A stretch of 64,000 bases of DNA from NCBI GenBank assembly GCA_951406725.2, contig OX597820.1:13454001-13518000 (forward strand). The letters run 5' to 3'. The stretch is from Octopus vulgaris. Its lineage: Eukaryota. Positions 1 to 44,305 of this stretch are shown piece by piece (within the stretch, counting starts at the first letter, position 1; every line of letters begins with the position of its first letter). Made by a program: the position numbers and the translations under genes. The notes beneath the pieces were generated by a model. The model had not been told where the DNA came from. It did no database searches and saw only the letters and a program-made list of their open reading frames with translations.

Positions 1-2183
1 GTTCTCGAGTTGACCCTCCTCCGTCTGAATAATTAAATCAAGCGTCCTTCCTTTGCACCCTCCTTCTGCTTCTGTGGCATCTTCTCCTCGCTTCCAACAA
101 GGATAGCTGCCGCTACCCAAGCTACTTCTATATCCGATGGAATTGCTTCTACCCTCACCTTGGAAGTTTTTCTTGTTTTCACCGCCACATTCGCCAGCCT
201 CATCGCCTCCTCTACTGTCCTAAATTGGGCGACCATTGTCCCATATCTTTTTCCTTTGGTGATATATATTATATCTTTTGACTTCTCTCTTACCGCCTTT
301 TCTGTTTCCGCTTCCAACTGCTCAGCCTTTTTTTCCTTTTAAAGAGAACACCTTATAGGTGATCGTTTTCCTTTCCATCTTACATTTCGTTGGAGAGGTT
401 GAGGCCGACCTCACCACACACTTGTGGGCTCCCTCTTTCTCCTCCCTCCTCAGGTAGCCCGGCAAGGTCGCGATACGCCGGATGGCCTTTGGGTGTCTCT
501 TTTATTTGTCTGTACACTTTTTCCGCAATCCACGCACATCTTTCGTCTAGATCTTTGTTTTTGTCGTACAATCTTGCTGTGTGGTGCGGGACGACAATAT
601 CATCTGTATATTTGTCTCGAGTATCATACTCAATTAACACAAGTTCATCTCTTTCGTCTTTTTTTTTCTGGGCCAGTTAAGCGGGATTTTTTTTTTGGTG
701 GGGGTATCTGTGATGCGTCATCATTTTTATTTTTTGTAGGGGATGTGGACAGGGATGATGCATGAGTTATTTTACGAACAATCGTAAATTCCCTCTCTGA
801 TACCTCCATGGTATCGTCTGGGGTAGTTATATTTTGTTCAGTAGGCACTGCAATTTTTAAGGGGGTGGGAGGTTTTAATAATGTAGGGGCTTGTGTGTGC
901 AAGGGCTGGGTTTTTTGTCAGTTTGTTTTGAGGTTGGCACCGTAACAGCAGGAGTGGGACATTTTGTTTTTGTACGGGTAGGTGAGTTTGCAAGGGTAGG
1001 GATTTTTTTTATCTGAGGGGCCTGTTGTCTGCGGTTTCTTTTGATTGCCAGGACAGTCCACACGAATGTGGCCCTTTTTGCCGCAGGCGTAGCAGGTGGG
1101 TTTTCGGCCCTCGACCTGTACCTCGAGGGCCACATTCTCGCCCACGAGTACCCTCTCAGGAAGGACCTGCAGGTCCTCCTGTGTCCCTTGGATTATTACA
1201 TTAATGCTCCGCCCAAGCCAACTTTGAGGAGCATAGCATATTACCTGCAATATTTTGTACGCCCTCTTATATAACAGGGCGGCCACCACCTCTACTTCTG
1301 GCGGCACTTCTGTAATCTTGACCCAGGACGTCCTACGCCCCATATGTCGGCAGAAGTACTACCTCCTTAGTGTTTAGGGGACTCACGGAATGCCCGCGGG
1401 CCACCTCTTCCCCCGAGAAGCGGACCTCCACAGTGCCGTGTGCCCGTCCCCGGCGACGTACACTATGTCCCTCCAAATCGGCGACAGGCATTTTTGATAA
1501 TATTCTTTTCAAAGTGTTTGAACATTCTGCTTTGTGGGCAGAAGGTTTTAAACACTACGGTCCGCTTCTCTGTCTCCACGATACTAGAGGATGGTGATAT
1601 TTTAACATCACCACCCTCTTCTTTCATTCTTTTAAATAGCTAGACGAGCTGATCAACATTAATGTCAATGTTCTCGGTTGCCACTGCGGCAACCGCCGAA
1701 AATTTTTTATGTGTTGGCACATCTATCAACGTTGCTCTCAAGAGCACATTTTTCATGAATAATCTCTGTTGAACTTAATTATACACAACACAAAAATTAC
1801 AAATACAAATATTGGTTTCCCACAAAACTGGGAACCCTATAAAAAGTATTCCTCCCAAAGCAGTTCAAAAAGTAGTTCAAAAGCAGTTCAAAAATTAAGT
1901 CCAATTCCCACCCCCATTCGGGGGAGGGGCATAAAAATAGTCTAGCAAGACTATATACAGTCACGAAGATGTTATAAATTAAAAAAGGCCACAATGGCTA
2001 ACAGTTCAACAATAGCAAATTATCAAATTATTCCCCGGTAAAACCGGGAATCAAGACAGTTCAACAACAAATCTTCAGTAATAAAATCCAACAAGTAATC
2101 CAAATGCTACGAATAGTAACAGAGCAAAACTCTTACCGAGAAGAAAAACACGTCCAAACCGTAGTAAGGTAAGCAAAGCTACT
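1..2183 (-). mobile_element. Unit 1: composite ORF1-only element (family D ORF1 joined to family C ORF1), runs off the window
   Basis: Disrupted ORF1 from about 1756 (KRTVVFKTFCPQ..., CYACGKKGHIRVDC in ORF 918-1343), then a second ORF1-like segment (33-317, ITKGKRYGTMVAQFRT) homologous to ORFs 5674-6105 and 18819-19733. Confidence 0.75.
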
Positions 2184-2211
2184 CTTCAGTCAGTGAGGTA
2201 AGCAAGCTACT

Positions 2212-4364
2212 TTATTTGATAAAATTTATCATATAGACAGTACAAAGATTGTGTAGCTTTGCGGGCTGGACAAACATAATGAATGAAAATGAAATATAAT
2301 GAATGAGAGGCGAAACCCAACACCCGCCGATTGGATTTTTCTCAAATATTTTTTTTTTTTTTTAATCAATATGAGGTTTCAAACCTCTTACAAGAAGGAA
2401 GCACTAAAACCTCTTGCAAGCCACCTTATTTCATTCAACCTGCCACAAGAGCTGCACATAGATTTACAACAATTCTCCTTATCAGATCCCCCAAGCAATG
2501 TGACTTGCCGCCTGCAGACAACTCTGCAGCGACAAGTCGGGGCCTGCAAAGAGGAAAGCAAATTCTTCCTTGTCAAAGGTCGCTGTGACCTTTGACAAAA
2601 GGTTCTCCGTTACTACCTCCGCAGCCATCTGCGGAGGCCATATCGGACTACTTGGGCAGAACGAGTATACACGTTCTCGGTCATCCAAGCCGTCCAAAAA
2701 TTTATTCACCGTCCTTTCCTTGTGGTAAAGGAGGAGAAACCCCTCCTCTTCACACTGCTCCGTCAGTGACACTTCCCACTGACAGAGCCCTATCCGCAGG
2801 TGGCACACATCCCACCTGCGGCTCCATCGGCGGCCTAGGAGCATCTGCCAACCGCCTTCTGATCCTCTTTTTCCTCTTTCTTTTTGAGGCTGCGGGAGCA
2901 GGGGGCTGCGTCGACAGATGCGGGGGGTCGCTACCTTCCTCCGCCGCCTGTACATTCTTTGGTGAGCAACCATTGTTGCTCACCTTTTTCTTTTCGTGGA
3001 GGCAACTTCTTCCACGACTTCCGCCATCTCCCCCTCCAATAAGGGGGCGGCGGGCACCTCTTTCTCATGCTCCAGGGCCCCACCACGGCCCCCTGGAAGT
3101 TCCTTTTGATATGGCCAGGCTCCAGGCACAGATGACACTTGGGGGGGGGGTCGTCCCTCAAGTATCACCGGGTACCTGTGCACGGCCATTTTCAGGAAGT
3201 CTGGGAATTTCATCTCTCCCACGGCCACCGGGGTCCACAGGATCAAAGTTGCCTTTGACTCCTCCCAGGCGACCGCGGGAGTCATTTTTACACTCAGTAG
3301 CCTAGGCCCGCTATTCCCCAGGCCTCGCCGGATGGTCTCCTCGATCCATTCCGCCTCCGTGCCCGGGGGCATCCCGCAAACCCAGGCTCTTTTTATTTTC
3401 CTGCCACAATACGAGGGGAGGAACAATTTCCTCTCCCTCAAGGGGCTCGCTAGCAAATCTGCTAGCTTCCTCGTGGGTACCAAACAGCAACCACACCGTT
3501 GCAAATTTAGTCCCCCGAGAAATAAACTTTATAGTTGGCAGGTGGTCTGCCAACTCTTTTTCTATTGTGCTCCTGTCGAAGAGGGCGATGTCCCCATGCG
3601 ACCTAGAATAGGTTCGTAGGACCACCGTCCTCTTCTCAAGATCTTTAATCCACTCCAAAGCAGTGGCTTCATTTTTTTTTTGCCATGTGACAGAAAGTTC
3701 AGAGTTCAAATAAAGTTCGATAGTTTTGAAAAAAGTAAGGAAGGTACAGAAAGGAGGAGCACAACAGAAGGGAAGAAATCAACAGAAAATCACAAACAAA
3801 AAAACAAAAAGAGAAGTTAAATAAAGTTCAAAATAAAGTCAATAAACAGCAAAACACGGCAAAAATCTTCTGGCCTTACGGTACTCCGGCCTGAGTTAAA
3901 CCTGGAACGCCGCAACACAACCTCTACAAAAATTGGTCCAAAAGGTAAATCCAAAAGTGGCTTATTCTTTTCTTGCGAGATACTCCGACAAAGGAATCAA
4001 TTTTTCGGTCGAAAAGGTCTGGCCGTCCAATGGTAAAATAAATTCAATAAAACCAACCACAGCACTGGTCACCGCAACAGTAACTGTATTGGGTTCTGAG
4101 GATACGCCCCTCCACTGTTTTTTTTTTTCAATAAACACAAAAACAGCAGCCGACGAGAGCAGGTGAAATTGTCCCGGAGCTGGACACAACTTACTGAAAA
4201 AATAATTAGCACGCAATAAATTATGCCCAACAAACAAAATCACTCACCTCGACAACTGTTTTTGGTCTTTTTTTTCTGTAATTGGACGGAGCTAGCTATC
4301 TCACGTCCACTTTGGTTCAACAGGAAGCAACTGACTAACAGCGCATGTGCGTTAGCGAGCTACT
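2212..4364 (-). mobile_element. Unit 2: ORF1-only non-autonomous Tx1-type element, family B, frameshifted
   Basis: ORF pieces 3686->2482 (LEKRTVVLRTYS, ISRGTKFATVWLLF, RAWVCGMPPG, CHLCLEPGHIKRN). AATAAA 3' end at about 2212. No ORF2. Confidence 0.85.
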
Positions 4365-5068
4365 TTTATTCATTAAATTTGCCATAAAGGCAGTACATCG
4401 ATGTAGCTTTTGCGGGCTGGACGTAGACATTGATGGTATGAATGATGGTGATGGAACGAAGATATTGATGGGAGAAGACGAAAGCACCCGCCGACTTCCG
4501 CTTCTCTAAGACAATGTTTTTTCCAAAAAATTTTACAAAGTCACAAAATTTTACAAAGGTTAAGAGACAATGAACCTCTTTCTCAATATGATACAAAAAC
4601 ATTAAACAGGTTCCAGTTACCTGGCCGACCAGCGCTCTTGCTTCATTGAGGCAATCATTCTTTGTCAGGCCGTACCATACAGGTATAAATTGAAAGGAGT
4701 CCTCCGGGAAGGAATTAGCGATCCTGCATAGTTCGTTATCCAATAGGACCTCCGCAGCCAGCTGCGAAGGCCACTTAGGGTCCTCTGTGCAGGACCGAAG
4801 TCTTTCCCATTGGCCTCTCTTTCTCATTTTACCTATTTCATTTTCCAGCGTTCCTCCTTTGTAGAAGACCACATGACCGGAGCAAAGTGGAGTCTATTAC
4901 TCTCCAAAAAATAAATACAGAGCAATAAACTTCACTAAGCCCCCCAAAAAATTCAACAAATGCCTACCTGTAGTCGAGTCTCAAAATTCAATAATTCACG
5001 TCGAAAAACGCGACATCCGGCAGCAGCCAAAAAACACGTCCGTACACGTCGAAGGTTAGCAAGCTACT
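4365..5068 (-). mobile_element. Unit 3: about 0.7 kb internally deleted derivative (5' UTR fused to the family A ORF1 C-terminus and 3' UTR)
   Basis: 4875-5068 is nearly identical to 8365-8558. 4610-4872 encodes the family A C-terminal domain (RKRGQWERLRSCTEDPKWPSQLAAEV). Confidence 0.8.
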
Positions 5069-6469
5069 TTATTTTATCAGATTTGCCATAAAGGCAGTAC
5101 ACAGATGGGACACTACAACACATGTGGGGACATATAACAATTAAAAAATAAAATATGATATAATGAATGAACATGAAAATGCACATGAAGAACAAATTAA
5201 TATATGATAATATGAATATCTGAAAATGATATTATGAAGAGTCTGCTACTCACCCCACACTGAGTAACACAACTCGCTGTCTCTGGGTCCTGAGTTCTTT
5301 TTCTCTTTTCGTTCAATCCTGTCACTTAATGGTAACCTTCTCTCCGTCATGCATTCATAACCATTTTTTTTTTGCCTGGAGGGGGGGGTCTTCTAAATTT
5401 TGTGGTGTCTGTTCTTTTCTTGAGGGGAAATGGGGGGGGTCTGAGTGGTCTTGGGTGGGATGGGGTTGGACTGGGGTGCCAATTCATACTCAGTGTCTTT
5501 TCTTTTTTCTCTTTCTTCTTGTGCGCTCTGAAACTTTCCCTTCCTCCTTTTCATCGCTTCCTTCGTCTATTTTTTCTTTTTCCTCTTTTTTCTCTTCTGT
5601 CTCTGCAACCACATCCGCGGCCGTAGTCTTTCGTAGGGGGCAGTATGCTCTAATGTGGCCCTTTTGGCCACATTTAAAGCAACGTGGTACTCTGCCCTCT
5701 ACCCACACCCTCAGCACGATTTCCCCCCAGCGTCACAGTTTCTGCCAAGTTCTCAAGCTGTTCCTCCTCTGTCTGAATGATTAATTCGAGCGTCCTTCCT
5801 TTGCACCCTCCTTCTTCTGTTTCTGTGGCTTGGAGGACAACCACCTTCTCCTCGCTTCCAACAAGGACAGCTGCCGCTATCCAAGCCCCTTCTACGTCCG
5901 GCGGAATTGCTTCTACCCTCACTTTAGAAGTTTTTCTTCCAAGGTATTTGGGTAGAAGCACTACCTCCTCCGTTTTCACCACCACACTTGCCAGCCTCAT
6001 TGCCTCTTCAGCTGTCCTAAATTGGACAATCATTCTTTTTCCTTTTGTGATGTATGTGATTTCTTTTGACCTCTCTCTTAGCGCTCTTTCTGTATCCGCT
6101 TCCACCTGTTCAGCCCTTTTTCCTTATAGGTGATAGTCTTTCTTTCTATCTTCTCCATAATTCTTTTGGGGGGCGACAGTCTTACGTCCCCTCCCACCTT
6201 CTGTAGCATCTTGCCATGGTTTTTCAGTCCAGCCAAGTCCAGCTCCTTTCGTATCTTCTCCGTGACCTCTGCAAAACTCCTGGTCTTTTCAAGCATACCG
6301 GCCATTGCTATGACCGCCCTCACGAGCTCCTCCTCTGAAGACAACTCAGACCCGGTAAGGTCTGAGTACATTGTCTCACCGCAGCAACAACACCGACGTC
6401 CGACTCGCACACAAACGACAAACCAAATGCACTATGGGTAACCGGAAGCAAGCTGGTTAGCGAGCTACT
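5069..6469 (-). mobile_element. Unit 4: ORF1-only element, family C, frameshifted
   Basis: MYSDL start at 6371. Pieces 6078-6410, 5674-6105 and 5490-5717 (VEGRVPRCFKCGQKGHIRAYC) are homologous to unit 11. Confidence 0.85.
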
Positions 6470-8558
6470 TTATTTCATTAGAATTTGCCACGAGGTCAGT
6501 ACATAGAGTAGCTGCGGGCTGGACAAAAACATTGAGATGAGGATGATAATGATGAACAAAAATGGGAGGGGCACTGGCACCCGCCGACCAATAACCCCTC
6601 GAATACAAAGTTTCTTTACAAAAATTTTTTACAAAATATTTTACACCAAAAATTTTACAACAAAATTTTTACAGCAAAAATTTTCTTACAATTTTCCTTG
6701 TCAGGTCCCCCGAACTAATTGACCTTCCCCCTGCAGAAAACTCTGCATCGACAGGTCGGGGCCTGAAAACAGAAAAGCGAATTCTTTCTTGTCAAAGGTC
6801 GCTGCGACCTTTGACAAAGTTTTTTCCGTAACCACCTCCGCAGCCACCTGCGGAGGCCAATTCGGACAGCTTCTGTCGAACGAGTACATTCGTCCTAGTT
6901 CGCCCAAGCCGTCCAGAAATTAATTAACCTTCCCTCCCTCGCAATAAGGAGGACAATCGTTCCTTCTTCAGGGGAAGGTACTTCATGCTGCTCCATCAGT
7001 GGCACACATCCCACTGACAGAGCCCTCTCCGCAGGTGGCACACATCCCACCTGCGGCTCCGTCTGCGACCCATGAACATCAGCCGCCCGACCTCTATTTC
7101 TCTTTCTCCTCCTTTTTTGGGGGGAGACTGCTGGCTCAGGGGGCTCCGTCAGCAGACATGGGGGGTCGCTATCCCCCTCCACCACCTGAACATTCTTTGG
7201 TGGGCAACCATTGTTGCTCACCTGTCTTTTTCTTTTCGTGGAGGCAACTTCCAATACTTCCACCGTCTCCCCCTCCAATGAGAGGGCAGCGGGCACCTTT
7301 TCCCTTTCATGCTCCGGGGCACCGCCACGGCCCCCGGGACAGTTCCTCTTGATATGTCCAGGCTCCAGGCAACGGTGACACTTGGGGGGGGGGCGTCCCT
7401 CGAGTATCACCGGGTACCTGTGCCCGGCCATTCTCAGGAAGTCTGGGAATCTCATCTCTCCCACGGCCACCTGGGTCCACAGGATCAAAGTTGCCTTTGA
7501 CCCTTCCAAGGCGACCGCGGGAGTCATTTTTACAATCAGTAGCCTGGGCCCGCTGTCCCCCAGGCCTCGCCGGATGGTCTCCTCGATCCATCCCGCCTCA
7601 TTGCCCGGGGGAAGCCCGCAAACCCAGGCTCTTTTTATTTTCCTGCCACAATACGAGGGGAGGAACAATTTCCTCTCCCTCAAGGGGCTCGCTAGCAAAT
7701 CTGCTAGCTTCCTCGGGGGTACCAAACAGCAACCACACCGTTGCAAATTTAGTCCCCCGAGAATTAAACTTTATAGTTGGCAGATGTTCTGCCAATTCTT
7801 TTTCTATTGTGCTCCTGTCGAAGAGGGCGATAGCCCAACGCGACCTAGAATAGGTTCGTAGGACCACCGTCCTCTTCTCAAGATCTTTAATCCACTGCTT
7901 GGGTGGGACAACCTCCCACTCCAAAGCAGTGGCTTCATTTTTTTTGCCATGTGACAGAAAGTTCAAATAAAGTTCGATAGTTTTGAAAAAAGTAAGGAAG
8001 GTACAGAAAGAAGCACAACAGAAGGGAAGAAATCAACAGAAAATCACAATAAACAAAAAAAAACAAAAAGTTAAATAAAGTTCAAAATAAAGTCAATAAA
8101 CAGCAAAACACGGCAAAAATCTTCTGGCCTTACGGTACTCCCGGCCTAAGTTGAACTCAGGAACACCGCGACTGGAACAGCTTTCACCAAATTGGTATAA
8201 ATTGGTACCGAACCGCAGCACAATTAGTCCTTTCTACCTTGGTACTCCTTGGTAAATCCAGTGGGAGAACACAAAGACAATTTTTGCAGAGAGGCTACGC
8301 CTCCTCAAAAAGCACAATTCTCACTGCAAAGTGAGTCTTTACGCTCGTCCACAGGCAGGAAAAATGTCCGAGCAAAGTGGAGTCTATTACTCTCCAAAAA
8401 ATAAGTACAGAGCAATAAACTTCACTAAGCCCCTAAAAAAATTCAACAAATGCCTACCTGTAGTCGAGTCTCAAAATTCAATAATTCACGTCGAAAAACG
8501 CGACATCCGGCAGCAGCCAAAAAACACGTCCGAACACGTCGAAGGTTAGCGAGCTACT
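6470..8558 (-). mobile_element. Unit 5: ORF1-only element, family B
   Basis: ATG at 7950. ORFs 7598-7966, 6895-7746 (CHRCLEPGHIKRNC) and 6701-6907. Body closely similar to unit 2. Confidence 0.85.
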
Positions 8559-9869
8559 TTTATTCATCGAATTTGCCATAAAGACAGTTCACAGATGTAG
8601 CTTTTGCGGGCTGGACGTAGACATTAATGGTATGAATGATGGGGATGGAACGAAAATGGTGATGGGAGAAGACGAAAGCGCCCGCCGACTTCCGCTTCTC
8701 TAAGACAATGTTTTTTATTTTCAAAAATTTCAAAAAAATTTCAAAATTTTACAAATGTCACATGAGGCAATGAACCTCTTTCTCAATATGATACAAAAAC
8801 ATTCAACAGGTTCAAGTTACCTGGCCGGCCAGCGCTCTTGCTTCTTTGAAGCACTCACTCGCTTCCAGGCCGGACCACACAAGCATAAATGTACAGATCA
8901 CTTTCCCATAGGACCTCCGCAGCCGTCTGCTAAGGCCACTTAGGGTCCTCCGAGCAGGACCGAAGTCCCTCCCATTGGCCTCTCCCTTTCACCTTCCCTA
9001 TCTCGCTCTCAATGGTCCCTCCCTTGTGGAAGAGGACCACATAAGTGACCTCCGGCAGCACATCCGCCTGAGGAGGCTCGGGAGACGCCGTCCGCGTCTC
9101 ACAATCCGCCGGCGGCGTTCCGCTTCTTTTCTTCCTTTTCTTTTTTCCTTGGGCCGCGGGAGGCTGAGGTTCCGGTGTTGCACACAACGGGTCCTCTTTC
9201 TCTCTCGCAGCTTCCGGGTCTTTTGGTGGGTCACCATTGTTGCGCACTTTTCCTTTTCTCGTTGAGGAAGTTACTGTTTCCTCGTTCTGTTTCTCTCCCC
9301 CCATTGGGGGACCAGGGAGAGGTTCCAACATTAACTGCTCCAGGATCCTACTTTGGTCCCTGGGGTAGTTCTCCAGGCACAGGTGACACTTGGTGGGGGG
9401 GGGCGTCCCTCAAGCATCACCGGATACTTGGACCCGGCCATCCTCAAGAAGTCCGGAAAAACCAGACTTTTGGCTGATTGGGTCCACAGGGTCAACACAG
9501 CTTTCGACCCCTCCCAATCAGCCGCAGGCAGTACTTTTACATTCAGCAGCTTGGAACTGCTACCATCCAGACCCCGGCGGATAGAATCCTCTATCCACTC
9601 GGGCTCAACGCCGGGTGGTAAGCCGCAGATCCAGGCTCTCAATTGTTCTCCCTTGTAATTTGGGAGAAACAATATTTCTTTTCTCAATGAGCTGGCTTGG
9701 AAAATCGCAAGCTTCTTTTGGGGAGTCAAATAGCAACCAAACCGTTGCGTATTTCACTCCCCGTGCGATAAATTTAACGGCTGGCATGTAGTCCGCCAGC
9801 TCGTTCAGTATGGTGGCCTTCGGGAAGACGGCTATGGTGTCGAGCGACTTCGAGTAAGTCCTCAACACC
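8559..9869 (-). mobile_element. Unit 6: ORF1-only element, family A, 5'-truncated
   Basis: ORFs 9605-9868, 9331-9729 and 8930-9331. It begins abruptly at VLRTYSK against the 3' end of unit 7, with no junction motif. Confidence 0.8.
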
Positions 9870-12800
9870 TTTTTCTTTATTACCCACGAGGGGCGACATA
9901 GAGGGGAAACTACAAGACAGTGGGGACATAGAACATTATAAAAATAAAAGTATGCAAGATGAAATTTTGAAAATGATAATATGAAAGTGATGCTAACGGC
10001 TCCATTCCGCTAGCATCACTTACCTGTCCTTCGTAACCTATCATCATCTGTCATCTCCAATCAGAAGCCCTACATTCTCTATCATTCTCTTAGCTCTCTC
10101 TTCAAACTCCTTCACCGTCTCATCCGTAAATTTTACCTTAGTCACTTTCACACCTTCATTTAAACAATTCACCATAATTCCATCCGTCCGTTCCTCTGAC
10201 ACTACTGCATAACTACCATCTACCTTCTCATACCATGAATAATCACTTATGTCTATTGAGTCTTTTGTGTCCTCTTTTTTTCACAAAACAAAGAATATGG
10301 GGCCTGGGATCTTGGTTAATTTCTTGTGTGTCTGTATTTTTTTGTTTTCTTGTAGGCGGGGAGTGGGTGGAATCACTGTTTGCAGGGGAAGGATGGGACT
10401 CAGAGGGTGCGGGTGGTGTTGGGGTGGGTTGGGGTTCAGTACAGTTCATTTTTCTCCTCCTTCTTTTCCTTTTCTTCCTTGCTTCTTCCCATTCAATCTG
10501 GGCTTCCTCCTCCTCATTTTCTTCCTCTACTTGTTTCTGTTCTACTTCCTCCTCTTCCTGGTTCTTCACCACAGTTTCCTTTTGTGGGGGAGGGCAGTAA
10601 GCTCTTAGGTGGCCCCTCAGGCCACACTTGTAGCAACGTGGAGCTCTGCCCTCCACCCACACTCTCATAATAACATCGCCCATCTTATTTTCGGTTAGTC
10701 TTTCCAACGTATCTACCTTCGCTTGAACATTCATATCCAGTATTGCTCCCTTCCATCCTTCATCCTTTACGGTGGCATGCAAGATGTCCACCTCTTCTTC
10801 ACAATCTTTTATCACAGCTGCTGCTATCCATTCTGCTTCAATGTGGTGGAGTATTCCCTCCACCCGGATTCTCGTTGTCCTATTTAAATACGTTGGTAGC
10901 ATGAAAATTTTCTCCGTCTTTACAGCTTTCGCCGCCATTCTTCTCGCTACTCGTTCACTTTTGTATTGCACTACTACCGTGCCAAACTCGTTTCCTCTTG
11001 CAACAAATATTATATCTTCACCTGTCCTTTTTACCGCCTCCTCGATTACTTCCATTTTGATAATTTCGACATTTTTGCTATTGATTTCGTAGGTTCGGTA
11101 CTTTATAGTCCTTTTGTTGAACCACTCGCCACGCTTTGGTGGTGGTGTCAGTTCTACATCGCTTCCAACTTTCTCCATATACTCTTGAAAGCCTGGTAAT
11201 TTGACTAAATCTATGTCTTTCTCTTCCGTTTTCCTCGCTGCGCCCGCGTATGTCTTTCCAACTTTGACGTCCATTTTATTCACGGCGCTTATCAATTCCT
11301 CTTCGGCGGTTGATAGCTCCCACAGACTTTCGAACAAAGTACTTTCTGCCATCTCTCCCGTTAGGGAGGGGCGGTTCATTACTTCTTGTCTGTCTTGTTT
11401 ATGTAGGGACTTGTGCGTGCTGGGGCTGGGTTTTTCTGTGCTTTGTTTGGGGACTAGCACCTCAACAACGGGGGTGGGAGTTTTTGTGTTTGTGGGGATT
11501 GGTGTGTTTGCGGGGGTGGGTTTTTTTTTGTTATTTGAGGGGCCTGGTGTTTACAACAACTATTTTTTTTCTTCGGTCAGCTCGAATGTGGCCCTTTTTT
11601 CCGCATTGGTAACAGGTGGGCTTACGGCCTTCCACCTGTACCCTAAGGGCCACATTCTCCCCAACGAGTACTCTCTCTGGTAGAGCCTGAATGTCCTCCT
11701 GTTTGCCTTGTATTAAAACCGTTGTTTCGCCCTAACCATATCTGTGGGGCGGAACTTGTGGTCTGTAATATGTTAATCCGGTCCGTCCTGTTGAACAACA
11801 GGCCGGCCACCACTTCTTTCGGGTCTACTGTGGATGGGATTTCGTTAATCCTTACACGGGATGTTCGTCGCCCCCTGTGCGTTGGCAAAAGTACCACTTC
11901 CTTGGTCTTCAGGGGGCACACGTGGTGCCCGCGAGCCACCTTTTCCTCTGAGAATTGAAACAACGGATCCGTATGCCCGTCCCCTCGAAATATACATTAT
12001 ATCCCTCCATATCGGGGCCAGGCATTTTTCAATGGTTTCTTTCCCGAAGTGCTTAAACCTTTTGTCTTGTGGGCAGAAGGTTTTAAACACCACGGTCCTC
12101 TTTTCCGTTTCTAGCACGGTGGAGGAGGGCGATATCACAACATCACCTCCCTCCTCCTTCATTCTTTAAAATATCCCTGCAGCATGTCTGCAGAGATATC
12201 TATGTTTTCGGTTGCTACTTCTGCAACTGCGGAAAACTTTTTACAGCGTTGGCGCAATTGCCAACATCAACATTGATCTCTTCAAGAGTAGATTTTTCAT
12301 GTATTATTTCAACCGACATGGTTGAAAAGTAATTGGTTTCCCACAAAACTGGGAGACCTTTCGAAAAAAGAAATTTTCCTCTCACAGAGGACAAAAGTAA
12401 TTAATTTTTTAAATGCTCGCAGTCCCAGGTTCAAATCCCACCCCCGCTGGGGGGGGGGGGGGTGAGACGTAGCAACAAAGTCTACGACGATTTGAAATTA
12501 TTTTCCACCACAACGAAATCCCCAAAAAGGGAAACCTATATTTTTCCAAAACAGTTCAAATCTCGCCCGTGCTACGAGTGGATGTCACAATAGAGCCTAC
12601 AATGGCTAAAATTAAATTTTTCTACAATAACAATTTGCTATCCCAAAAACGGGAAGCCTATAATATTTTTTTTCCTCTTAATAAGGATAACAGTTCAATT
12701 GCCACCCCCGCCGGGGTGGGGCGCAACAATAAAGCCTACAACGGCTTTAACAAGTTCAACAATATTAATATTTCAATATTAATTTTTTTTTTCTTACAAG

Positions 12801-24440: not shown

Positions 24441-24696
24441 TATATTTCTTTATTACCCACAAGGGGCCAACTAAGAATGGGACAATACATCATGATTTGG
24501 GGTCATGAGATACAAATGATATTTACACAAAAATGAACTTTAAAAACATTTTTACACAAAATCGGAAAAATCGAATGATACACAATGTTTTTAACAACAG
24601 CACGACATAAAAGGAACACATGAAGTGGGAACACCAGGATTGCCGACCCCACGAGCCCTGTTTTTCCCACCGAAACTCGGCAGCCAACTTACATGT

Positions 24697-28080: not shown

Positions 28081-28087
28081 AGTTTGC

Positions 28088-34206: not shown

Positions 34207-34237
<31 letters not shown>

Positions 34238-34786
34238 CCACACTTCTTCGGCCAAAATATAATCCAGGCCAAATGCACTTGGTAAATAATCCTTGGTAAT
34301 CCGTGGACACACAATGACAATTTCAAATAATTTTTTCAGACGGACTAAGCCGCTTCAAAAATACAATTTCTTTTCGCTCGACACAGGCAGAAAAATTACA
34401 CCCGGAGCAAAGTGGAGCTCTATTACTTGCTAAAAAATATTAACTGCTAAAAAAAACATTCATGCAAATAATAAAACTTCACTTCGCTCGCAAAAATACA
34501 AAATTCCTACCTTTAGTCGAGACGAAAGTTCAATATTTCACGTTGAAACAACGCGACATCAATACAATTTTCTTTCCACTCGACACAGGCAGAAAAACTA
34601 TATCTGGAGCAGAGTGGAGCCTTATTATCTGCTAAAAAACATTAATGCAAGCAATAAAACTTCACTAAACTCCCAAAAATACAAAGTTCCTACCTTTAGT
34701 CGAGACGAAAGTTCAACAATTCACGTTGAAACAACGCGACATTTGCCGGAGCAAAAAACAACACATCTGTATGGTAAGAAGCTACT
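32562..34786 (-). mobile_element. Unit 16: ORF1-only element, family A
   Basis: MAKAKNFTVW at 34045. ORFs run to 32863. Duplicated 5' UTR monomer at about 34360-34750. Confidence 0.85.
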
Positions 34787-36513
34787 TTATTTCATTTAAT
34801 TTGCCACCAGGGCATCACACAGAGGTAGCAGTAGCTCCGGGCTGGACACAGACATTAATGGATTATGGTAATGATGGATGAAAATGGTGATGGGAGAAGT
34901 CAGAAGCGCCCGTCGACCTCTGCTTCTCTAATACAATGTTCTTTTTACAATGTTTTTAAATTTTACAAAATTCAAAATTTTCAGAAAATAACAGTGTTCA
35001 ATGAATACATTTAGTAAAATGTTCAAAAATGTTCAAAATGTTCAAATTGCATTTTTTCAGACGAGATGATAAACCTCCTCTTCAACATGTTTAAAAATGT
35101 TCAAAATGTTCAATAAGTGTTTAACAATTCTCCCCGTCAGGTCCCCGAAGCAAATTGTCTTGCCGCCTGCAGACAACTCTGCGACGACAAGTCTCTGCGA
35201 AGAGAAAGGTAAAGTGCCTTCTTTCAAAGGTCTCTGCGATCCTTGATAAGATAGCATCCGTTACCCTTTCCGCAGCTACCCACGGAGGCCATAACGGATT
35301 TCTTGAGCCGACCGCGCCCTTGCGCTCAAGGTCGCTCAAGCCATTCAAGAAATCTTCCACCTCCTCTCCCTTGTGGTAGAGGAGGAGAAGCATCTCCTCT
35401 TCACAGGAAGGGACCTCCAGTGGCTTACTTCCTACTGGCGGAGCCTTGTCCGCGGGTGGCACACATCCCACCCGCGGCTCCGTCGGCGACACAGAAACGT
35501 CAGACGTCCGACCTCTCCTTTTTCTCCTTCTTTTGGGGGAGACTGCTAACCCAGGGGACTCCGTCACCAGACACGGGGGATTGCTATCCTCCTCCGCCCC
35601 CTGAGCGTTCTTTGGTGGGCAACCATTGTTGCTCGCCAGCCTCTTTCTTTTCGTGGAGGCAACCTCCTCCACGACTTCCACCGTCTCCCCCTCCAATGAG
35701 GGGACGGCGGGCACCTTTTCCTTTTCATGTTCCGGGGCGGCACCACGGCCCCCGGGACACTTCTGCTTAATATGTCCAGGCTCCGAGCACCGGTGACACT
35801 TGGGGGCGCGTCCCTCAAGCATCACCGGGTACCTGGACCCGGCCATCTTCAGGAAGTCCGGAAAAACCAGACTCTTGGCCGACTGGTACCACAGAGTCAA
35901 AGTGGCCTTTGACCCTTCCCAGTTAGCCGCAGGCTGCATTTTAACGTTGAGGATCTTGGCGTCCCTGTCACCCAGCCCCCGGCGGATAGTCTTCTATCCA
36001 CTCGGGTTCAAAGCCGGGCGGCAGGCCACAGACCCACAAACGTAACAGTTTTTCCCCCCTGTAACTGGGGAGAAACAGAATTTCATTGCCCTCAATGGGC
36101 TGGCTTGCACATTTGCAAGCTTCTTCGGCGGAGTCAAATAGCAACCAGACCGTTGCGTACTTGACCCCCGTTGTATATGTTTAACGGCTGGCATATAATC
36201 TGCCAGCTCGTTCTCAATGGTATCTCTCGGAAAGACCATTATGGTGTCGAGTACCTTTGAAAATGTTCTCAGCACCACGGTTCTTTCCTCAAGATCATGT
36301 AAATATTTTTTGGGAGGTGCCAACTCCCACACAGTAAAATTCCTTGCCTTCGCCATAACGTAAAATACAATAGTTCAATAATAACTAAATTTAGCCACAG
36401 AAAGAATAAAAATGTAACAGAAGGGAAGAAAAAATAAAAATGGCAGTTCAAAAAAGTTTTTAACAAATAAATGATAGAAGAGAGAGTTCAAATTAGGCAA
36501 AGGAATTCAGTTT

Positions 36514-36555
<42 letters not shown>

Positions 36556-36935
36556 CCTCACTTCTTCGGCCAGAATGTAATCCGTGCCAAATGCATTGGT
36601 AAGACCCTTGGTAAACAATCCTTGGTAATCCCGTGGACACACAATGACGATTTCACAATAATCTCTTCAGTCGGACCAAGCCGCTTCAAAAATACAATTT
36701 CTTTCGCTCGACACAGGCAGAAAAATTACATTCGGAGAAAAGTGGAGTTTTATTACTTGCTTAAAATAATTAATGCTAAAAAACATTAATGCAAGCAATA
36801 AAACTTCACTTCGCTCACAAAAATACAAAATTCCTACCTTTAGTCGAGACGACAGTTCAATATTTCACGTTGAAACAACGAGACATCGGAGCAGCAAAAA
36901 ACCACGTCTAACTCAGACGAAGGTAAGAAGCTACT
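34787..36935 (-). mobile_element. Unit 17: chimeric ORF1-only element (family A N-half, family B C-half)
   Basis: MAKARNFTVW at 36356. ORF 35121-35939 switches to the family B tail after CHRCSEPGHIKQKC. Confidence 0.82.
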
Positions 36936-37711
36936 TTATTTTATATAATTTGCCACTAGGGCAGCACACAGAGTAGCTGCAGGCTGGACAAGGACATTAA
37001 TGGATGATGGTGGTGGTGGATGATGATGGTGGTGGGAGAAGTCAGAAAGCGCCCGCCGACTTTTGCTTCTCTAAAACAATGTTCTTTTTTTTTTTTTCAA
37101 TCATTTGCAAAATTTCAAAAATTACAAAAAATTCAAATAATTTTTCACAGAAATTTCAATTTTCAATTTACACTTTTTAATAGTCTCTTCAGAGGCAATA
37201 AACCTCTGTCACAATGTAACACAATTACAATTTTACGTTACCTGACCGATGAACTCTCTTGCTTTAATGACGCAATCGTCCATCGTCAGGCTTCCGCATA
37301 CTGGTATGACTTGCAAGAGATCCTCCGGGAAAGAATTCTCGATCCTGCACATATCATTTTCGAGTAGGACCTCCGCAGCCAGCTGCGAAGTCCACTTGGG
37401 ATACTCCATGCAGGACCGAAGTCCCTCCCATTCGTTTCTCTTCCTCCTCTTACGTATTTCGTTTTCTATAGTGATTTCTTTATTAAGATTATATAATCTT
37501 ATACATAGAATTACAAATACATAACAAACATGCAAAACAAATAATTAAGAGGTTCGCTATTTAAAAATTTTTTTTTTTTTTTATAACATTTGTATTAAAA
37601 ATTCGTTTTTTTTTAAATTGTCCTTTATATAACCAGTAGCATCTTTATCACAGTTCAAACCCCGGCAATTTACAAGCCCCGCAGCTTTTATTTCCTCTCC
37701 TCCCTCCATAG

Positions 37712-40700
37712 TTAAGCTGGGTTTCTAACACCCACCTTTCTTTCCACTTCCTTCCATCTTTTCTCATACACGCCCCGTGGTAAGCTCCTCTTCTCCAGCC
37801 CCATTTGCTCTTCAGATGATATCTGAAGTAAGTGAGCAAGCCGGGGCCGGAGACAAAGGTTCCTATCGCGGCTCCTTCCATTCTCGTTCTCCACATGCAT
37901 TCTTTTACTACTGCAACCGTACAGTGAAAACATGCCTCACCTTCCTTCGAGAGTCCAGTTGGCGGTATCATCTTAATCATAGTCTCAGCCGACAGCTGTA
38001 CTCGTCCTAGATGCGATAACACGTGTTCTGCGTAACTTATCAAGTCTGACAACTTCCGACAGTGTACAAAGGCGTGCTGAACGGTTTCATCGTCCAACTC
38101 GCACCTTGGACACGTCGGTGGCACTGGAATTCCGTGCCGCGATAACTTCTCGCGAACAGGTAGAGCGTTCCTATAACACTGCCAGGCCAGGGATCTTTGG
38201 AAATTATCCAAGTACCCCGTCCTGAAAGTCTTTTTAAACAGGTTGGTAAGCTGGTCTTCATCAAACCCCAGAGCCCCTCCTAGGACGTCGTCGTTTTTTT
38301 CCTCTACCAGCTTTCTATAAAATACCGAGGTGGTATTTCCGCAGCCGGCCTTGCCCGCCTTGTGGATCAGCGTGAGTGCCTGTCGGCACTCCCTTTGCCA
38401 CAAAGTCAGTTTCCATCTTTTGATGCGACCGGGTTTAAAATCCGTTAAGGAGGCCAGTCTCGGAAAAAAATTCCCTGCCAGCGGACTCCACACCTTATCA
38501 CCCTCCAGGTGGTGCCAGAGATGCTTCAGCCTCAACGCATGTCTGCGCATCATCAGCCAAGGCATTCCTAACCCACCCTTTAACGGTTCCTGGCAGCAAA
38601 CTGAGCGCCTCACAAGTGGCTTTCCTCCCTTCCACAAAAAGCGGAAGAGGATTCGCTCCAACTTGTTAAGCCATGAACCGGGGCAAGGGACAACGGTCAG
38701 GCGGTAAGTGATTACAGATGCAATGAACATCTGCACCACCTCCGCCTTTCCTTTCAAGGACAGAGACCTTCCGGACCAGGTCCGTACTATGGCCTCCACC
38801 TTGCTCGCCACCTCACTCCAGTTCCTCTCCGTTTGGGAGTCTGGCCCAAACCAGACTCCTAGCAACTTAACAGGGCCATCCGTCCAGTGTCCCACGACGC
38901 TGGACGATATCGACTTGTTCCTCCAGGTGCCGAGGCGCAAGCCAACCGACTTGTCCTTGTTAACCTTTGCTCCTGCCACCGCCTCGTATCCTCTGATAGC
39001 CTCTTCCACACAAGGTAGCTGGGCCTCATTGGACACGATGAGGGTGACGTCATCCGCGTAAGCAGTAACCGACCTCCCACCTCCGATCTCATCCGAGTTG
39101 CTTCCCAGCCTCTCCAACTTTCGCAGCAATGGCTCAAGAGCCAACACGTACAAAAGTGGTGACAAGGGGCACCCTTGACGAACTGAACATTCAATCGAAA
39201 ACGGTTCCGTTAGGTAACCGTTTATCTGGACGGTGGACTTGATGCCGCTATACATAGCGGAGATCCACCCGCGAAATTCAGGGCCCAGTCCAGCCGCTTC
39301 GAGGACCGTCGCCAGGTACTCATGGTCTACCCTATCGAAGGCTTTACTTTGGTCTAAATGGACCATTACCCCTCCCTTGCCGGTTAATTTACCCACCCTG
39401 TCTAAGGTGTAGCGTATAAGGTGAAGATTGTCCTGGATCGACCTGCCTGGAATTGCACATGTCTGTGCTCTCCCTACAAGTTTCTCCACGACAACCGTCA
39501 ACCTTTTTGCCAACACCTTGGCCAAAATCTTTAACTCTACATTAAGTAGAGTTATGGGCCTGTAGTTACTAATGTTGTCCCCCTTGCTCGGGTCTTTCTG
39601 GATTAGCGTCACCACTCCCCGGCTTACAGAGCTGGGAATTCTCCCATTCTGCTGCCAGCTCGTGTAGACGCCTGCCAAAATTCCCCCGAACAAGTCCGGC
39701 ATACTTTGGTAAAACTCGTAGGGCAGACCATCCAACCCCGGCGACTTCTCCCCGGCGCATCCGGGCAGTATCCCCTCTATCTCCGCGGGAGTGATCGCTC
39801 CTTCACAGCACTCCACCTCACGCCCCGAGAGCCGCGGTCCGCCGGCCAGGAAGTCCTTTAAGGTCCTTCCCCGCTCCGGCGCCACACCACCCCCGAACAC
39901 GCGGGCGAAATGCTGGTGAAGAAACTTTTGCATCTCCTCCTGTCCATAGATCTTTTGTCCCTGTTCGTCAGTTAAAGATTTGATTGAGGCTCTGTTGCCT
40001 CTCTGACTCTCCACACGACGGGCCCATCCGGCCACGTTAATACCTTCTCGTTTCCCAGCGCGTAGCTTAGCTCTGACTCTGCAACCTTCGTGTTTGGAGT
40101 TAAGGTGACGGTACAATACCGTCCTTGCCGCCAACACTCCGGATGCAGAGCCAGCTTCCATTGCCTCGTCTAGATTCTTAACTAAATCGCCCTCTAGACT
40201 AGCCCTATCTATCCTTAGCTGATTGCTAAATCTAACGGACTCTGAACGAATGGCTCTTTTGAGGGAGTGCCACCATCTATTGTTAATGATGGCGCCACAC
40301 AATGCCCCTCTGTACTAATACCTTAATCCGGGTACGGAAGTCTTCACAATTCAAAATAGCCTTGTTCAGCTTCCAGTACCCGGGTCCCTGTCTATGACAC
40401 TTGTCCAACTGCATCTCACACGTCACAAATTTGTGATCCGTGTAAGGCACAATGTGGAACTGTGGACAACTAAACGTGTCCTTATCTCTTTTTTTAATAA
40501 ATATCCTATCTAAATACGATCTGCGTGAGCCGTCGTTGTTACTCCACGTCCACTGTGGAACGCTCGGCTCATCCAGTCGGTAACGGTCTACTAGATCAAA
40601 GCTCTCTAGTAGACCCTTGAGGCTAGGGTTCCCCTTCCTATTGGTTGAGCCAACACTGTCGACCCGCGCTTCAAGGACAGTGTTAAAGTCCCCTACTAGG

Positions 40701-41100
40701 ATTACCGTTTTCGACGTCGCTAAAAAGGGCTCCAGGTTCCGAAAAAACCCGCCTGTCTACTCTCGTTCGGAGCGTAGACAGCTACCAACCTGAAGGACTG
40801 TTTACTTACGTGTGTCACATCCAGAACAACCAGCCTGCCTTCTGGGTCCAGAAAGACAGTACTTACCTGCAAGTCCAAGCTCTTCCTGATAAGGACTGCC
40901 ACGCCTCTGCCTCTTCCTCGGCTAGGAGAAATAAATTTCTCGAAGCCATTTAGAAGAGGCGAGAACGCTTGGGCCCCGTTCATCTTGGACTCGGTTGCAA
41001 TAGCTATGTCAACATTATGTGTTGTGAGGTCGTGCAGGAAGCAAATTTGCTTCCATTTCGACCCCATTCCACGTACATTTATACAACCCAACTTAGCCAT
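37712..41100 (-). pseudogene. Tx1-B ORF2 (EN + RT + CCHC), several frameshifts
   Basis: GCINVRG, IATESK, YRPITLLN, LDQSKAFDRV, VRQGCPLSPLL, YADD, CPRC..ETVQHAFVHC. Confidence 0.9.
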
Positions 41101-41128
41101 TGTAGGTGAGAGAGAAAAATAAATGTAC

Positions 41129-42562
41129 TCACGGTTGGGAAAGGGAGCATGACAGTTTAAGTCTGCCTGCTTCCCCTTCTTCCTCCCTTGTAGTTGCTGC
41201 TGCAGGGCTCTTGACCGGCGTTGCCACCGGGCTCTGGGTGGGTGTGGTTGCCGGGGTTATTACAAGTTTGCCCTCCATTACTTCTTTAGTCACGTCTCTG
41301 ATCAGTCGGTTCCTTCAAATGCTCTTGAAGAACTTCCTCCTTCCACTCGTCCTCCCCTACTTTCGCGAAGCGAGCGGTTGCTTTTACATCTGTAGCCCTA
41401 CTATACAACACAAATCTTGAGAATTTACAACACTTATAAACTCTTTCGTTTTTCTCATCGAAAGCAATTATCTTATTTTTTTTAACAACTTTTTTACGTC
41501 TTGTTTTATGGGGAGGGGCTTGGCAAACTGTTTCCCAATGAAAACAGTGCCATGGGGGTAGGGCTGGGGGATTTGCTTGGTGTGTGTGTCTGCTGTGCTT
41601 GCTGTTTTTTTCTTTGTTTGGGGAGGGGAGTCCTGGGTATTATCCTTTTTTCTTTTATGTGTGACTTGAGTGTAGTCCATCTGTTCGGTGCAGTCTGTTT
41701 TGGTTTCAATACTTGTCTTCGTCTTGTTATCTTTTCCTGTCTTCTCCCCTTCAGTGTTGGGAACACTTTGAGGAGGCGCTTCATCTGTTTTTTTTTTCTT
41801 TTTTATACAGTTCGATCGGACGTGACCCTTCTCTCCACACTTAAAACATCTGGGTCTACGTCCCTCTACTGAAACTCTCATTGATGTACCGTCTTCATTG
41901 AAAATTCTATCGGGCAGGTTTTCTAAAATTTTGTTTTCCGCCTGCACGAGGAGTTCCAGGGTCTGTCCCTTCCATCGTACCACCTCTTTCTTTCTCATCT
42001 GCAGTATCGAGATTTCCCTTTCAATATTGTGCAGGACCGCTGCTGCTACCCACATAATGTCGTACCCTCTGGGTATGTCCTCAACCAGCAGTTTTGCTGT
42101 ACGTTTCCCCATGTACGAGGGTAGCAGCATGATGTCGTCGTTTTTCAGTGTCAATGACGACACCTCTCTCGCTACCTCGGCTGTGTCAAAATGTGCCTCA
42201 ACCGTAGCACTACGCGCACCTCGGACAACATGACGAATTTTGTCCCACACCGGGGACAGGCAATTTTCGACCATTTCATTCCTTACGTCCATTATTTTCT
42301 TCTCTTTGAAGCTGTATACTTTATAAATGACTGTTTTCTCCTTAATCTCTTGTACCTTTGCCTGCGGCGGTACAAGCCTGATTTCGCCTCCTTCCACCTT
42401 CACCAGGTTCCTGAATTCGAACAATTGTTCGATTTTGAACTCCACATCCATCATGGCACCGCCCACCGCGGCCGAAAATGACTGTTTGGGTACTTCTGTT
42501 TCCTTTGTTTCACTTTTTCCCATCACGGGAAAATCATCCTTCGACGTCAAGTCGAATTCCAT
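41129..42562 (-). pseudogene. Tx1-B ORF1 (frameshifted near 41480)
   Basis: MEFDLTSK...VEGRRPRCFKCGEKGHVRSNC. The homolog 53178-54596 is open. Confidence 0.82.
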
Positions 42563-44282
42563 TTCAAAAAATTACCTCGAAGGTAATAACAATACAGGTA
42601 ATACAATACAAAATTTTCTGCCCCGTAGGGCGAAAATTACCGTTATACAACGGGCACTGTTCAAAACAATCAGCACAAACAACAACAACAATAGCACAAA
42701 TACGAACTCTCTTAGAGAAAGGCAGCTAATTCCGCAGAACGCAGATGAAAAATAACTAGAGAATAGAAAAGAGGTTTTTCGATAGTGCCTCCTTTATGGA
42801 AGAGGACTACATAAAATTTGTCCGGCATTACAATCGCCGGATGACACCTGGGAGACGCCCTCTGGGTGTTACAGTCCGCTGGCGGCGTCTCGTTCCTCTT
42901 TTTCTTTTTGCGCCGGGCCTCGGGAGGTTGAGGCTCCGGTGCCATACGCACCGGGTCCTCCTTTTCTTCCGCAGCCTCCGGTTCCTTTTGTGGGTCGCCA
43001 TTGCTTCCCACTCTTCTTTTTCTTTTGGCGGAGGGCTTTTCCCCCTCCTCGCTTTGTTTCTCTCCCTCCATTGGTGAGGCAGGGAGAGGCTCTAATATTA
43101 ACTTCTCCAGGATCCTACTCTGGTTCCTGGAGCAGTTTTTCTTAATATGGCCGGTCTCCGAGCACAGGTGACACTTGGGGGCGCGTCCCTCTAGCATCAC
43201 CGGATACTTGGAACCGGCCATCTTTAGGAAGTCCGGCAAAACAAGACTCTTGGCCGACTGGGTCCACAGAGTTAAAGTAGCCTTTCCTCCTTCCCAGTTA
43301 GCCGCAGGCTGCATTCTTACGTTTAGGATCTTGGCGCTACCACCACTCAGACCCCGGCGGATGGAATCTTCCACCCACTCGGGCTCAAAGCCGGGCGGCA
43401 GGCCGCAGACCCATAAACGTATCAATTTTTCCCCCTTATAGCTTGGGAGAAACAGAATCTCTTCGCCCTCAATGGGCTTACTTGCGAAATCGCAAGCTGC
43501 TTTAGGAGAGTCAAACAGCAACCAAATCGTTGCGTATTTGGCTCCCCGTTGAATGTGTTTAACGGCTGGCATATAGTCTGCCAGCTCGTTCATAATTGTG
43601 TCTTTCGGAAAGACCATTATGGTGTCGAGAGACTTCGAATGTCCTCAGCACCACTGTCTTTTCCTCAAGTTCGTTCAAATATTTTTTGGGAGGTGTTAAT
43701 TCCCACACTGTGAAATTCCTTGCCATAACTTAAGAAAAACAGTTCAAACTGTTACAAAATAAATTAGACACAGAAAGGAGAATGAAAAAGGCAACAGAAG
43801 GGAAGAAATAAAATTAAAATGGCAGTTCAAAGAAAGTTTTTTACAAATGAATGATAGGTAGAGAAAGAGAGTTCAAATTCAACAAAGGAATTTTTTCACT
43901 TTTTCGGCCAAAAATTGTACTCCAGGCCAAGTATATGGTTGGTACAACACCTTGGTAAATGATCCTTGGTAAATCCGTAGATAACACAACGATAATTTCA
44001 AAAATATTTTTTGTAGACGGACTACGCCGCCTCAAAAACACAATTTTCTTCACACCCGACAACAGGCAGAAAAATTATATCCGGAGCAAAATGGAGCCTT
44101 ATCTGCTAAAAATATTTAATGCTAAAATACATTAATGCAAGTAATAAAGCTTCACTTCGCTCGCAAAAATACAAAACTCCTACCTGCAGTCGAGTCGAAA
44201 GTTCAACAATTCACGTTGAAACAACGTGGCAACCGGAGCAGCAAAAAAACACGTCTAACTCAGACGAAGGTAAGAAGCTACT

Positions 44283-44303
44283 TAGCACACAGCCACTCCT
44301 GCG

Positions 44304-44305
<2 letters not shown>
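44283..44305 (-). mobile_element. 5' head of a tRNA-derived SINE (Pol III A-box region), interrupted by the retrotransposon array
   Basis: Minus strand reads GGCGCAGGAGTGGCTGTGTGCTA directly followed by AGTAGCTTCTTACC. TGGCTGTGTG is A-box-like. From memory it matches the start of an abundant octopus SINE (GGCGCAGGAGTGGCTGTGTGGTAAGTAGCTTGCTTACCAACC...); not database-verified. Confidence 0.75.

Follow-up and report, generated by a model that had tools for sequence, protein, structure and literature searches.

Tx1-like retroelements stacked at one fixed site within a tRNA-like SINE of Octopus vulgaris

A head-to-tail retroelement array

The window, i.e., the whole stretch of 64,000 nucleotides analysed here (Octopus vulgaris, contig OX597820.1, positions 13,454,001 to 13,518,000), harbours 17 units of Tx1-like retroelements, each led by a short motif and all stacked behind the first 23 nt (the head) of a tRNA-like short interspersed nuclear element (SINE), hereafter SINE-A (Table 1). 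The array lies entirely on the minus strand and extends from the head (44283-44305) down to position 379. We consider that Tx1-like elements insert at one fixed site of this SINE and that the window holds 17 successive units, likely added singly at the motif next to the head, a reading to which we give a probability of about 0.72.

With up to two substitutions allowed, the motif matches the minus strand of the window 13 times and the plus strand never, in keeping with the co-orientation proposed in an initial annotation of this sequence. A looser search found 17 copies (first bases on the minus strand at 44282, 36935, 34786, 32561, 30129, 24440, 21964, 19842, 18369, 16329, 14692, 12924, 8558, 6469, 5068, 4364, and 2211), as against the "about 18 units" counted there. 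Sixteen of them directly follow an element 3' end, and the AATAA ends described before the motif apply to these, except that the end at 24441 reads GAAATATA; the copy at 44269-44282 follows the 23-nt head instead, again as annotated. The consensus AGTAGCTYGCTWAC of the initial annotation matches nine of the 17 copies over 14 nt. The seven copies nearest the head read, after AGTAGC, either TTCTTACC (44282, 36935, 34786, and 21964) or TTTCTCACC (32561, 30129, and 24440), while the 10 distal ones carry TCGCTAAC in seven cases and TCCCTAAC, TTGCTAACC, and TTGCTTACC in one case each.

Fourteen units are elements with open reading frame 1 alone (ORF1-only) or remnants thereof, at least four ORF1 classes are represented, and all large frames with domain matches lie on the minus strand. 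The units are 65-95% alike, the closest pair being 94.6% identical, and the array in the window contains no whole copy of the autonomous elements that target the SINE. The ORF1 of unit 1 is interrupted by a nested autonomous element (91% identical to 49532-54778) with a 12-nt flanking duplication bearing one mismatch (42776-42787 and 37462-37473). In unit 5, the group-C element (ORF1 at 28454-29449, ORF2 in pieces at 24697-28073) abuts the motif with its 3' end, and motif plus 570-bp leader stand on both of its sides (23873-24440 and 29558-30129, 93% identical), as would result either from an exceptionally long duplication of the target or from template switching. Unit 12 is composed of 1.5 kb from the 5' end of an autonomous family that targets the SINE (11395-12909), part of a group-C ORF1 (9870-11394), and an ORF1-only 3' part (8559-9869). 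Past unit 17, motif-less ORF1 fragments form a decayed distal run, which stops at another SINE ca. 2.8 kb to the left of base 1; at the opposite end, (TA)n precedes the SINE-A head on the minus strand.

Table 1 Features of the array and its surroundings, in window positions
Feature	Position	Strand	Remarks
SINE-A head, nt 1-23, ending just past the A-box-like stretch	44283..44305	-	31-nt match to a natural SINE copy; tRNA alignment
Head-proximal motif, TTCTTACC variant, putative live insertion site	44269..44282	-	
Unit 1: ORF1-only element of ca. 2.03 kb, split by nested element	36936..44282	-	96.5-97.8% to copies elsewhere
Nested 5.3-kb autonomous element in unit 1, group B, frameshifted	37474..42775	-	ORF1 CCHC, endonuclease, reverse transcriptase, zf-RVT
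Unit 2: ORF1-only, 2149 bp	34787..36935	-	95.3% to copy elsewhere
Unit 3: ORF1-only, 2225 bp	32562..34786	-	
Unit 4: ORF1-only, 2432 bp, TTTCTCACC motif	30130..32561	-	nearest genomic copy 94%
Unit 5: 570-bp leader and group-C autonomous element	24441..30129	-	leader 93% to unit 6 leader
Unit 6: ORF1-only, 2476 bp, TTTCTCACC motif	21965..24440	-	
Unit 7: ORF1-only, 2122 bp, of the family carrying the TTCTTACC variant	19843..21964	-	
Unit 8: ORF1-only, 1473 bp, opens the TCGCTAAC run	18370..19842	-	316-aa frame, weak RRM and CCHC matches
Unit 9: ORF1-only, 2040 bp	16330..18369	-	nearest genomic copy 95%
Unit 10: ORF1-only, internal deletion, 1637 bp	14693..16329	-	
Unit 11: ORF1-only, 1768 bp	12925..14692	-	
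Unit 12: mosaic	8559..12924	-	three pieces
Unit 13: ORF1-only, 2089 bp	6470..8558	-	nearest genomic copy 92%
Unit 14: ORF1-only, 1401 bp, related to unit 8	5069..6469	-	
Unit 15: ORF1-only, internally deleted, 704 bp	4365..5068	-	
Unit 16: ORF1-only, 2153 bp	2212..4364	-	
Unit 17: leader and ORF1 of a 5.4-kb SINE-targeting autonomous family, ending at the ORF1/ORF2 boundary; canonical TTGCTTACC motif	379..2211	-	nearest genomic copy 90%
Motif-less ORF1 fragment, start of decayed distal run	1..378	-	
Separate cluster of group-B and group-C elements with the same orientation, upstream of the head, without motif joins	44505..64000	-	

The target SINE

Empty SINE-A copies in the flanks read head, motif, AACCACATGG, and then a B-box-like stretch, the motif being nt 24-38 of the SINE. 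The empty head pattern has 77,084 exact matches in the genome (control, 0), and together with the natural empty copies this confirms the view of the initial annotation that head plus motif form the start of a high-copy tRNA-like SINE. Against the octopus's own tRNA genes, the first 80 nt score 51.5 with the best of 30, compared with 27.7 +/- 4.5 (maximum 45) for 200 shuffles, i.e., ca. 5 standard deviations higher; Lys-like and Ala genes score alike, and the tRNA covariance model (Rfam) gave no match at E <= 10 for one natural SINE copy. SINE-A is short, dispersed, and present in high copy, with A- and B-box-like stretches, all of which are features of a tRNA-derived SINE. The insertion point lies between nt 23 and nt 24/25, just past the A-box-like stretch, and as an insertion thereby parts this stretch from the B-box-like one, the elements likely silence the SINE copy that they enter.

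Site specificity across the genome

An element end followed by motif and SINE body was found at 662 junctions in the genome (control, 0), and an element end followed by AGTAGCT at 1,119 places (control, 6). When the downstream bases were left free, AGTAG stood next to 94 of the first 100 of 145 element ends. The motif is thus a fixed site inside the SINE genome-wide, as had been proposed from the window. Among 40 loci picked by their 3' junction (the start of the list of 662, leaving out one near-duplicate and one locus already in the set), the 5' end carries the SINE head in 28; the other 12 comprise 11 that match 5'-shortened or rearranged element pieces and one without a match. When loci were picked by their 5' junction, the SINE body followed within 10 kb in 15 of 20. 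The simplest form of such a locus is a solo insertion 28-30 kb left of the window, consisting of head, motif, a 2.1-kb unit, motif, and body. Short target duplication and sequence preference, as in the Tx1 clade, are both present, and we conclude that this is a real genome-wide SINE-targeted retroelement system.

Complete arrays running from head through units to body were recovered with eight and four units on contig C1, five on contig C4, and seven on contig C5, and an array on contig C10 has at least eight junctions, its head lying beyond the stretch read. The largest cluster contains eight of the 90 junctions listed for contig C1 (100 of the 1,119 places were listed genome-wide). The eight-unit array on contig C1 holds seven ORF1-only units and one autonomous unit of 5.45 kb between one head and one body, so the stacking of autonomous with ORF1-only elements, claimed initially for the window, is real there, although the window array itself is almost wholly ORF1-only. 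Similarly, the nesting in a single SINE is borne out in the window at the head end only, while the complete arrays elsewhere display the full architecture.

These flanks also bear on the idea that the SINE head belongs to the element as a captured promoter, that the composite inserts anywhere, and that arrays are self-insertions. Most of the 40 listed matches to a query of head plus leader do span both parts. The SINE body, however, resumes right after the last motif in the 15 loci mentioned above and at the 662 sites, 5'-truncated copies also sit behind a head (L070, L094, L100, and L103), and inner units have none. The head as part of the element was therefore rejected as extremely unlikely. 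An assembly artefact, i.e., a long array made of collapsed or mis-joined repeats, is very unlikely as well: the distal SINE body of the window array is missing, but 144 kb contain no N, units this divergent are not copies of one another, the junctions are as precise as in solo insertions, and smaller complete arrays exist on other contigs.

Autonomous and ORF1-only families

SINE-targeting autonomous copies are 5.1-5.7 kb long and encode an apurinic endonuclease (APE)-type endonuclease and a reverse transcriptase (RT). The ORF2 of one such copy (1140 codons) has human L1 ORF2p as its best solved match (E 7e-66), R2 ranking behind it, and aligns with the catalytic motifs of the L1 endonuclease. 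The ORF2s of the window match Exo_endo_phos, RVT_1, and zf-RVT in Pfam, in line with the APE-type endonuclease, RT, and C-terminal zinc finger of a Tx1-clade ORF2. In an RT tree of 29 rows, including 14 chosen database homologs, the seven SINE-targeting RTs form one clade (100/99), and the two inner ORF2s of the window fall into two other groups. The window ORF2 elements, initially regarded as the SINE-targeting autonomous units, were consequently rejected as helpers: both lie outside the helper clade and one is nested with its own 12-nt duplication. We class the elements as Tx1-like within the L1/Tx1 group; the rows of the RT tree carry no Tx1 or L1 label. The homolog searches and the cluster look-up returned no named Tx1 protein, only unnamed or hypothetical ones, the nearest named protein being from Argonauta. 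Tx1-clade ORF1 proteins combine an RRM with a CCHC knuckle. Here, the ORF1 domain matches are zf-CCHC near the cut-off and one weak RRM_3, and ORF1 resembles CCHC and ZCCHC3-like clusters (scores 0.90-0.93).

Several ORF1-only families (1.4-2.5 kb) share the 3' hairpin and AATAA end of the autonomous families. Of 122 ends counted, 107 have all four base pairs of the hairpin intact, with changes on both sides, in a count in which a few loci overlap and the search pattern favours the 3' arm. Solo copies measure 2.0-2.5 kb, and single frames of 400-422 codons were present in 11 copies. Among 12 ORF1-only frames from other loci, the ratio of nonsynonymous to synonymous divergence (dN/dS, Nei-Gojobori) is 0.18-0.53 with dS up to ca. 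2, saturated pairs being unreliable and some copies mosaics, and global identity to the helper ORF1 is 18-24%. Both values indicate that the ORF1-only families are old lineages whose ORF1 has been kept under purifying selection, not fresh deletions of the present helper; they could descend from separate extinct helpers. SINE-A copies are still much alike, while ORF1-only lineages have diverged to dS above 1, so the guild of elements may predate the present SINE burst and may earlier have followed an older subfamily or else a tRNA gene.

Some ORF1-only copies (L028_u2, L026_u1, and window units 2 and 6) are mosaics with the N-terminal RRM region of one family and the C-terminal part of another, pointing to possible template switching among co-packaged RNAs. 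A 638-bp insert in L100 was rejected as a foreign retrocopy, as it is a truncated autonomous copy.

Probable rebuilding of the motif

In 40 full-length units adjoining the SINE body, half of them from loci selected by likeness to unit 1, the 5' and 3' motifs are the same in 12. One-base insertions or deletions (indels) at motif nt 8-10 affect 11 of the 40 5' copies and none of the 40 3' copies (p = 4e-4), and the T/A site differs between the two in 11 of 38. Indels were absent from 100 listed terminal motifs and from 100 listed empty SINEs. The deleted variant occurs 108 times in the genome, and sorting 100 listed occurrences by eye placed 57 before the leader of one family, 11 before other leaders, ca. 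22 before the SINE body, and ca. 10 elsewhere. Three loci (L027, L071, and L081) carry private target variants at nt 9-10 in both motif copies, which speaks against a purely element-borne origin. The mismatches and the family-tied variant thus suggest that the motif is partly element-borne, and the shared private variants that it is partly target-borne; the simplest reading would be a duplication of variable length (7-15 nt) to which a leader starting within the donor motif is joined. The motif would thus be rebuilt at each insertion, as initially proposed, though probably not by plain duplication.

It is unlikely that every motif is a plain target-site duplication of 14-16 bp and any junction reusable. 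R1 arrays and tandem SINEU-3 copies are described in this way (PMC3414825, PMC4494074), and both the shared private variants and a truncated unit with a full 15-nt duplicate (L023) would fit it. Yet 28 of the 40 motif pairs differ, the indels never occur in 3' copies, a single variant keeps to one family across dozens of unlinked loci, and the order of ages and variants is directional.

Direction of growth

On contig C5, the terminal motif reads TTGTTTACC and lacks the +T form, which is present at all seven upstream junctions but absent from the same young family on contig C1. On contig C10, the +T form arises at one junction and then recurs at every junction seen head-ward (the five head-most), and an older copy of the young family (97.8%) lies on the body side. 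Units of the window are 90, 92, 95, 94.8, 94, 95.3, and 97.8% identical to their nearest other copies going from unit 17 to unit 1, the genome searches behind four of these values scoring 40 candidates each. This identity correlates with position toward the head (Spearman 0.86, p = 0.014, n = 7). The head-ward passage of variants and the younger units near the head suggest that growth is likely polar, at the head end.

Local tandem duplication, or the copying of several units by read-through, as the main source of arrays in place of repeated independent insertion is distinctly improbable. Same-family runs on contigs C1, C5, and C10 are 99.2-100% identical, and a pattern on contig C5 (u3/u5 and u4/u6, 99.9%) fits a two-unit duplication. 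In the window, on the other hand, identity between units peaks at 94.6%, ORF1 falls into four or more classes, and the four units that were searched have their best matches on other contigs; recent tandem amplification was rejected for this array on account of its closest pair.

Proposed mechanism and its weak points

Our preferred reading, insertion at the fixed SINE site with growth at the head-side motif, could work as follows. The ORF2 endonuclease of the autonomous families would nick the bottom strand where the motif begins, and the nick would prime reverse transcription on RNAs recognised via the shared 3' hairpin, with ORF1-only RNAs riding in trans. A second cut, at a variable distance of 7-15 nt downstream, would duplicate the left part of the motif. 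Transcripts would begin inside the donor's own motif copy (at ca. nt 8-10), the element thereby bringing the right half, and the join of both halves would restore a complete motif, at times with one base in excess or missing. Only the head-side motif would retain the upstream SINE context, be reused, and let the array grow there.

Several points weigh against this reading. The mechanistic steps are drawn from junction sequences. Of the seven ages, three were obtained with loci picked because they resemble unit 1, a choice that biases the trend toward the head; units 4 (94%) and 9 (95%) break the age order, and so does the T8 motif at 5068 the C8 run. The inheritance of variants rules out that the terminal motif was used, but inner junctions may still have served. 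In the C1 and C5 arrays, unit pairs with 99.9-100% identity indicate that some units can arise by local duplication, and unit 5 that another lineage can end at the motif. Finally, no SINE-A body was found at the distal end, on the minus strand from 2211 to 39,425 bases left of the window. The initial annotation had expected the SINE remainder after the final motif and had held that its absence would count against the nesting; within the 39 kb searched leftward it is indeed absent. Judging from the decay of the distal units, this body was likely lost by a later deletion.

A wider scenario, which we put at somewhat below even odds, is that the SINE serves a long-lived guild as a landing site where insertion does no harm, the guild rebuilding its target from a site half and an RNA-borne half. 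Strict head-side reuse would then make a filled SINE a time-ordered ledger, and the ORF1-only lineages would keep ORF1 for their own RNA in the competition for helper ORF2.

Comparison with known systems

According to Kojima (2015), Tx1 families target DNA transposons, long terminal repeat elements, U2, U5, 5S, satellites, and microsatellites, e.g., Xenopus Tx1L inserts into Tx1D, crocodilian Tx1-Mar and SINEU-3 into Mariner-N4_AMi, and tandem SINEU-3 copies sandwich a 16-nt duplication (PMC4494074). Like Tx1L, Tx1-Mar, and SINEU-3, the octopus system comprises an APE-type long interspersed nuclear element (LINE), a fixed site in a high-copy mobile element, and non-autonomous partners at the same target. 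Unlike for Tx1L and Tx1-Mar, this target is a tRNA-like SINE; unlike the snRNA-headed SINEU-3, the octopus partners code for ORF1; and unlike crocodilian tandem insertions, the arrays reach up to 17 units of many families, with half of the motif probably element-borne (PMC4494074).

The architecture as such has been described before, since tandem R1 arrays in Drosophila 28S rDNA already have a 14-bp duplication between copies and interspersed R2/R1 SIDEs (PMC3414825). The octopus arrays resemble them in having several copies per target site with a duplication between and non-autonomous copies mixed in, and differ in clade, in a dispersed SINE target instead of rDNA, in non-autonomous units that retain ORF1, and in the polarity indicated (PMC3414825). 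Membership of the R1 clade itself is not indicated: the target is a SINE, and solved matches are L1 and then R2, with no R1-clade endonuclease chain listed.

HAL1 (half-L1) is a non-autonomous LINE derivative that encodes ORF1p only and forms families of its own (PMC5753468). The octopus ORF1-only elements likewise encode ORF1 alone and multiply as their own families, but they are site-specific, have a Tx1-like ORF1 (RRM plus CCHC, ZCCHC3-like), and fall into several deep lineages, with 20-23% global identity to the helper ORF1 (PMC5753468). Their ORF1 is CCHC-type and related to the local Tx1-like ORF1s, contrary to descent from mammalian L1. Telomeric HeT-A/TART/TAHRE arrays are head-to-tail, dominated by an ORF1-only element dependent on an RT-coding partner, and grow at one end (PMC4700185). 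The octopus arrays share the orientation, the dominance of ORF1-only elements, and probable growth at one end, whereas they are interstitial and presumably endonuclease-dependent, with a motif between units and no known host function (PMC4700185).

Every component has precedent, i.e., transposon targeting by Tx1, duplication-separated R1 arrays, and ORF1-only LINEs. CRISPR arrays also consist of leader, short repeat, and cargo, with the repeat renewed at the leader end and order reflecting time. The likeness of the octopus array to this layout would be one of analogy; its cargo is self-copying retroelements placed by reverse transcription, and nothing in it suggests guide processing or a defence role.

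Target lists, in the parts available, include tRNA genes and transposons in general and leave SINEs unnamed (PMC5035012, PMC4640811), and the accessible portions of the octopus repeat papers are silent on Tx1 targets (PMC13282606, PMC9115989). Neither a SINE-targeting LINE nor octopus Tx1 targets were found in a literature search that had Repbase, Dfam, and subscription journals outside its scope. No printed account was thus found of the combination as such, of a SINE as target, of a site rebuilt from two parts, or of the likely polarity, and Repbase or Dfam may already note the SINE target.

Implications

The system adds a SINE to the targets of sequence-specific LINEs. It offers an APE-type endonuclease with a defined 14-15-nt site, ca. 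77,000 empty natural sites, and about 1 in 100 filled, on which it can be tested what sets specificity. Hundreds of natural junction pairs make the poorly observed joining of LINE 5' ends testable as a matter of target share versus RNA share. If growth is polar, arrays would order the activity of element families directly, with no clock needed, and ORF1-only lineages that evolve under selection beside a helper bear on why such elements keep ORF1.

Neighbouring elements and SINE-B

The array belongs to ca. 71 kb of nearly all same-strand Tx1-like sequence. Upstream of the head (44505-64000 and ca. 4.6 kb beyond), at least five further elements, of groups B and C, are co-oriented with it and lack the motif. 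Another old ORF1-only unit, with a SINE-A body behind it, is located on the minus strand 8-9 kb to the right of the window (L017 region, ca. 71.8-73.4 kb in window coordinates). At 2426 and 22227 (minus strand), 215-260 bp before the real 3' end, inner look-alikes of an element end are joined to a decayed motif-like stretch and are perhaps fossil junctions captured into the 3' untranslated region.

The group-C 3' end, examined for a second LINE target, proved to belong largely to the tail of a further SINE. This SINE-B (ca. 230 bp; L149-L162) shares its tail with group-C elements (window ends at 24441, 45868, 59469, 9870, and 44505), and the tail has 21,188 exact matches in the genome. Owing to the common tail, SINE-B was likely mobilised by group-C elements. 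Many SINE-B copies pass at a fixed internal site into a repeat of the SINE-B body itself, forming 184-bp tandem runs of up to six, possibly a second self-targeting system.

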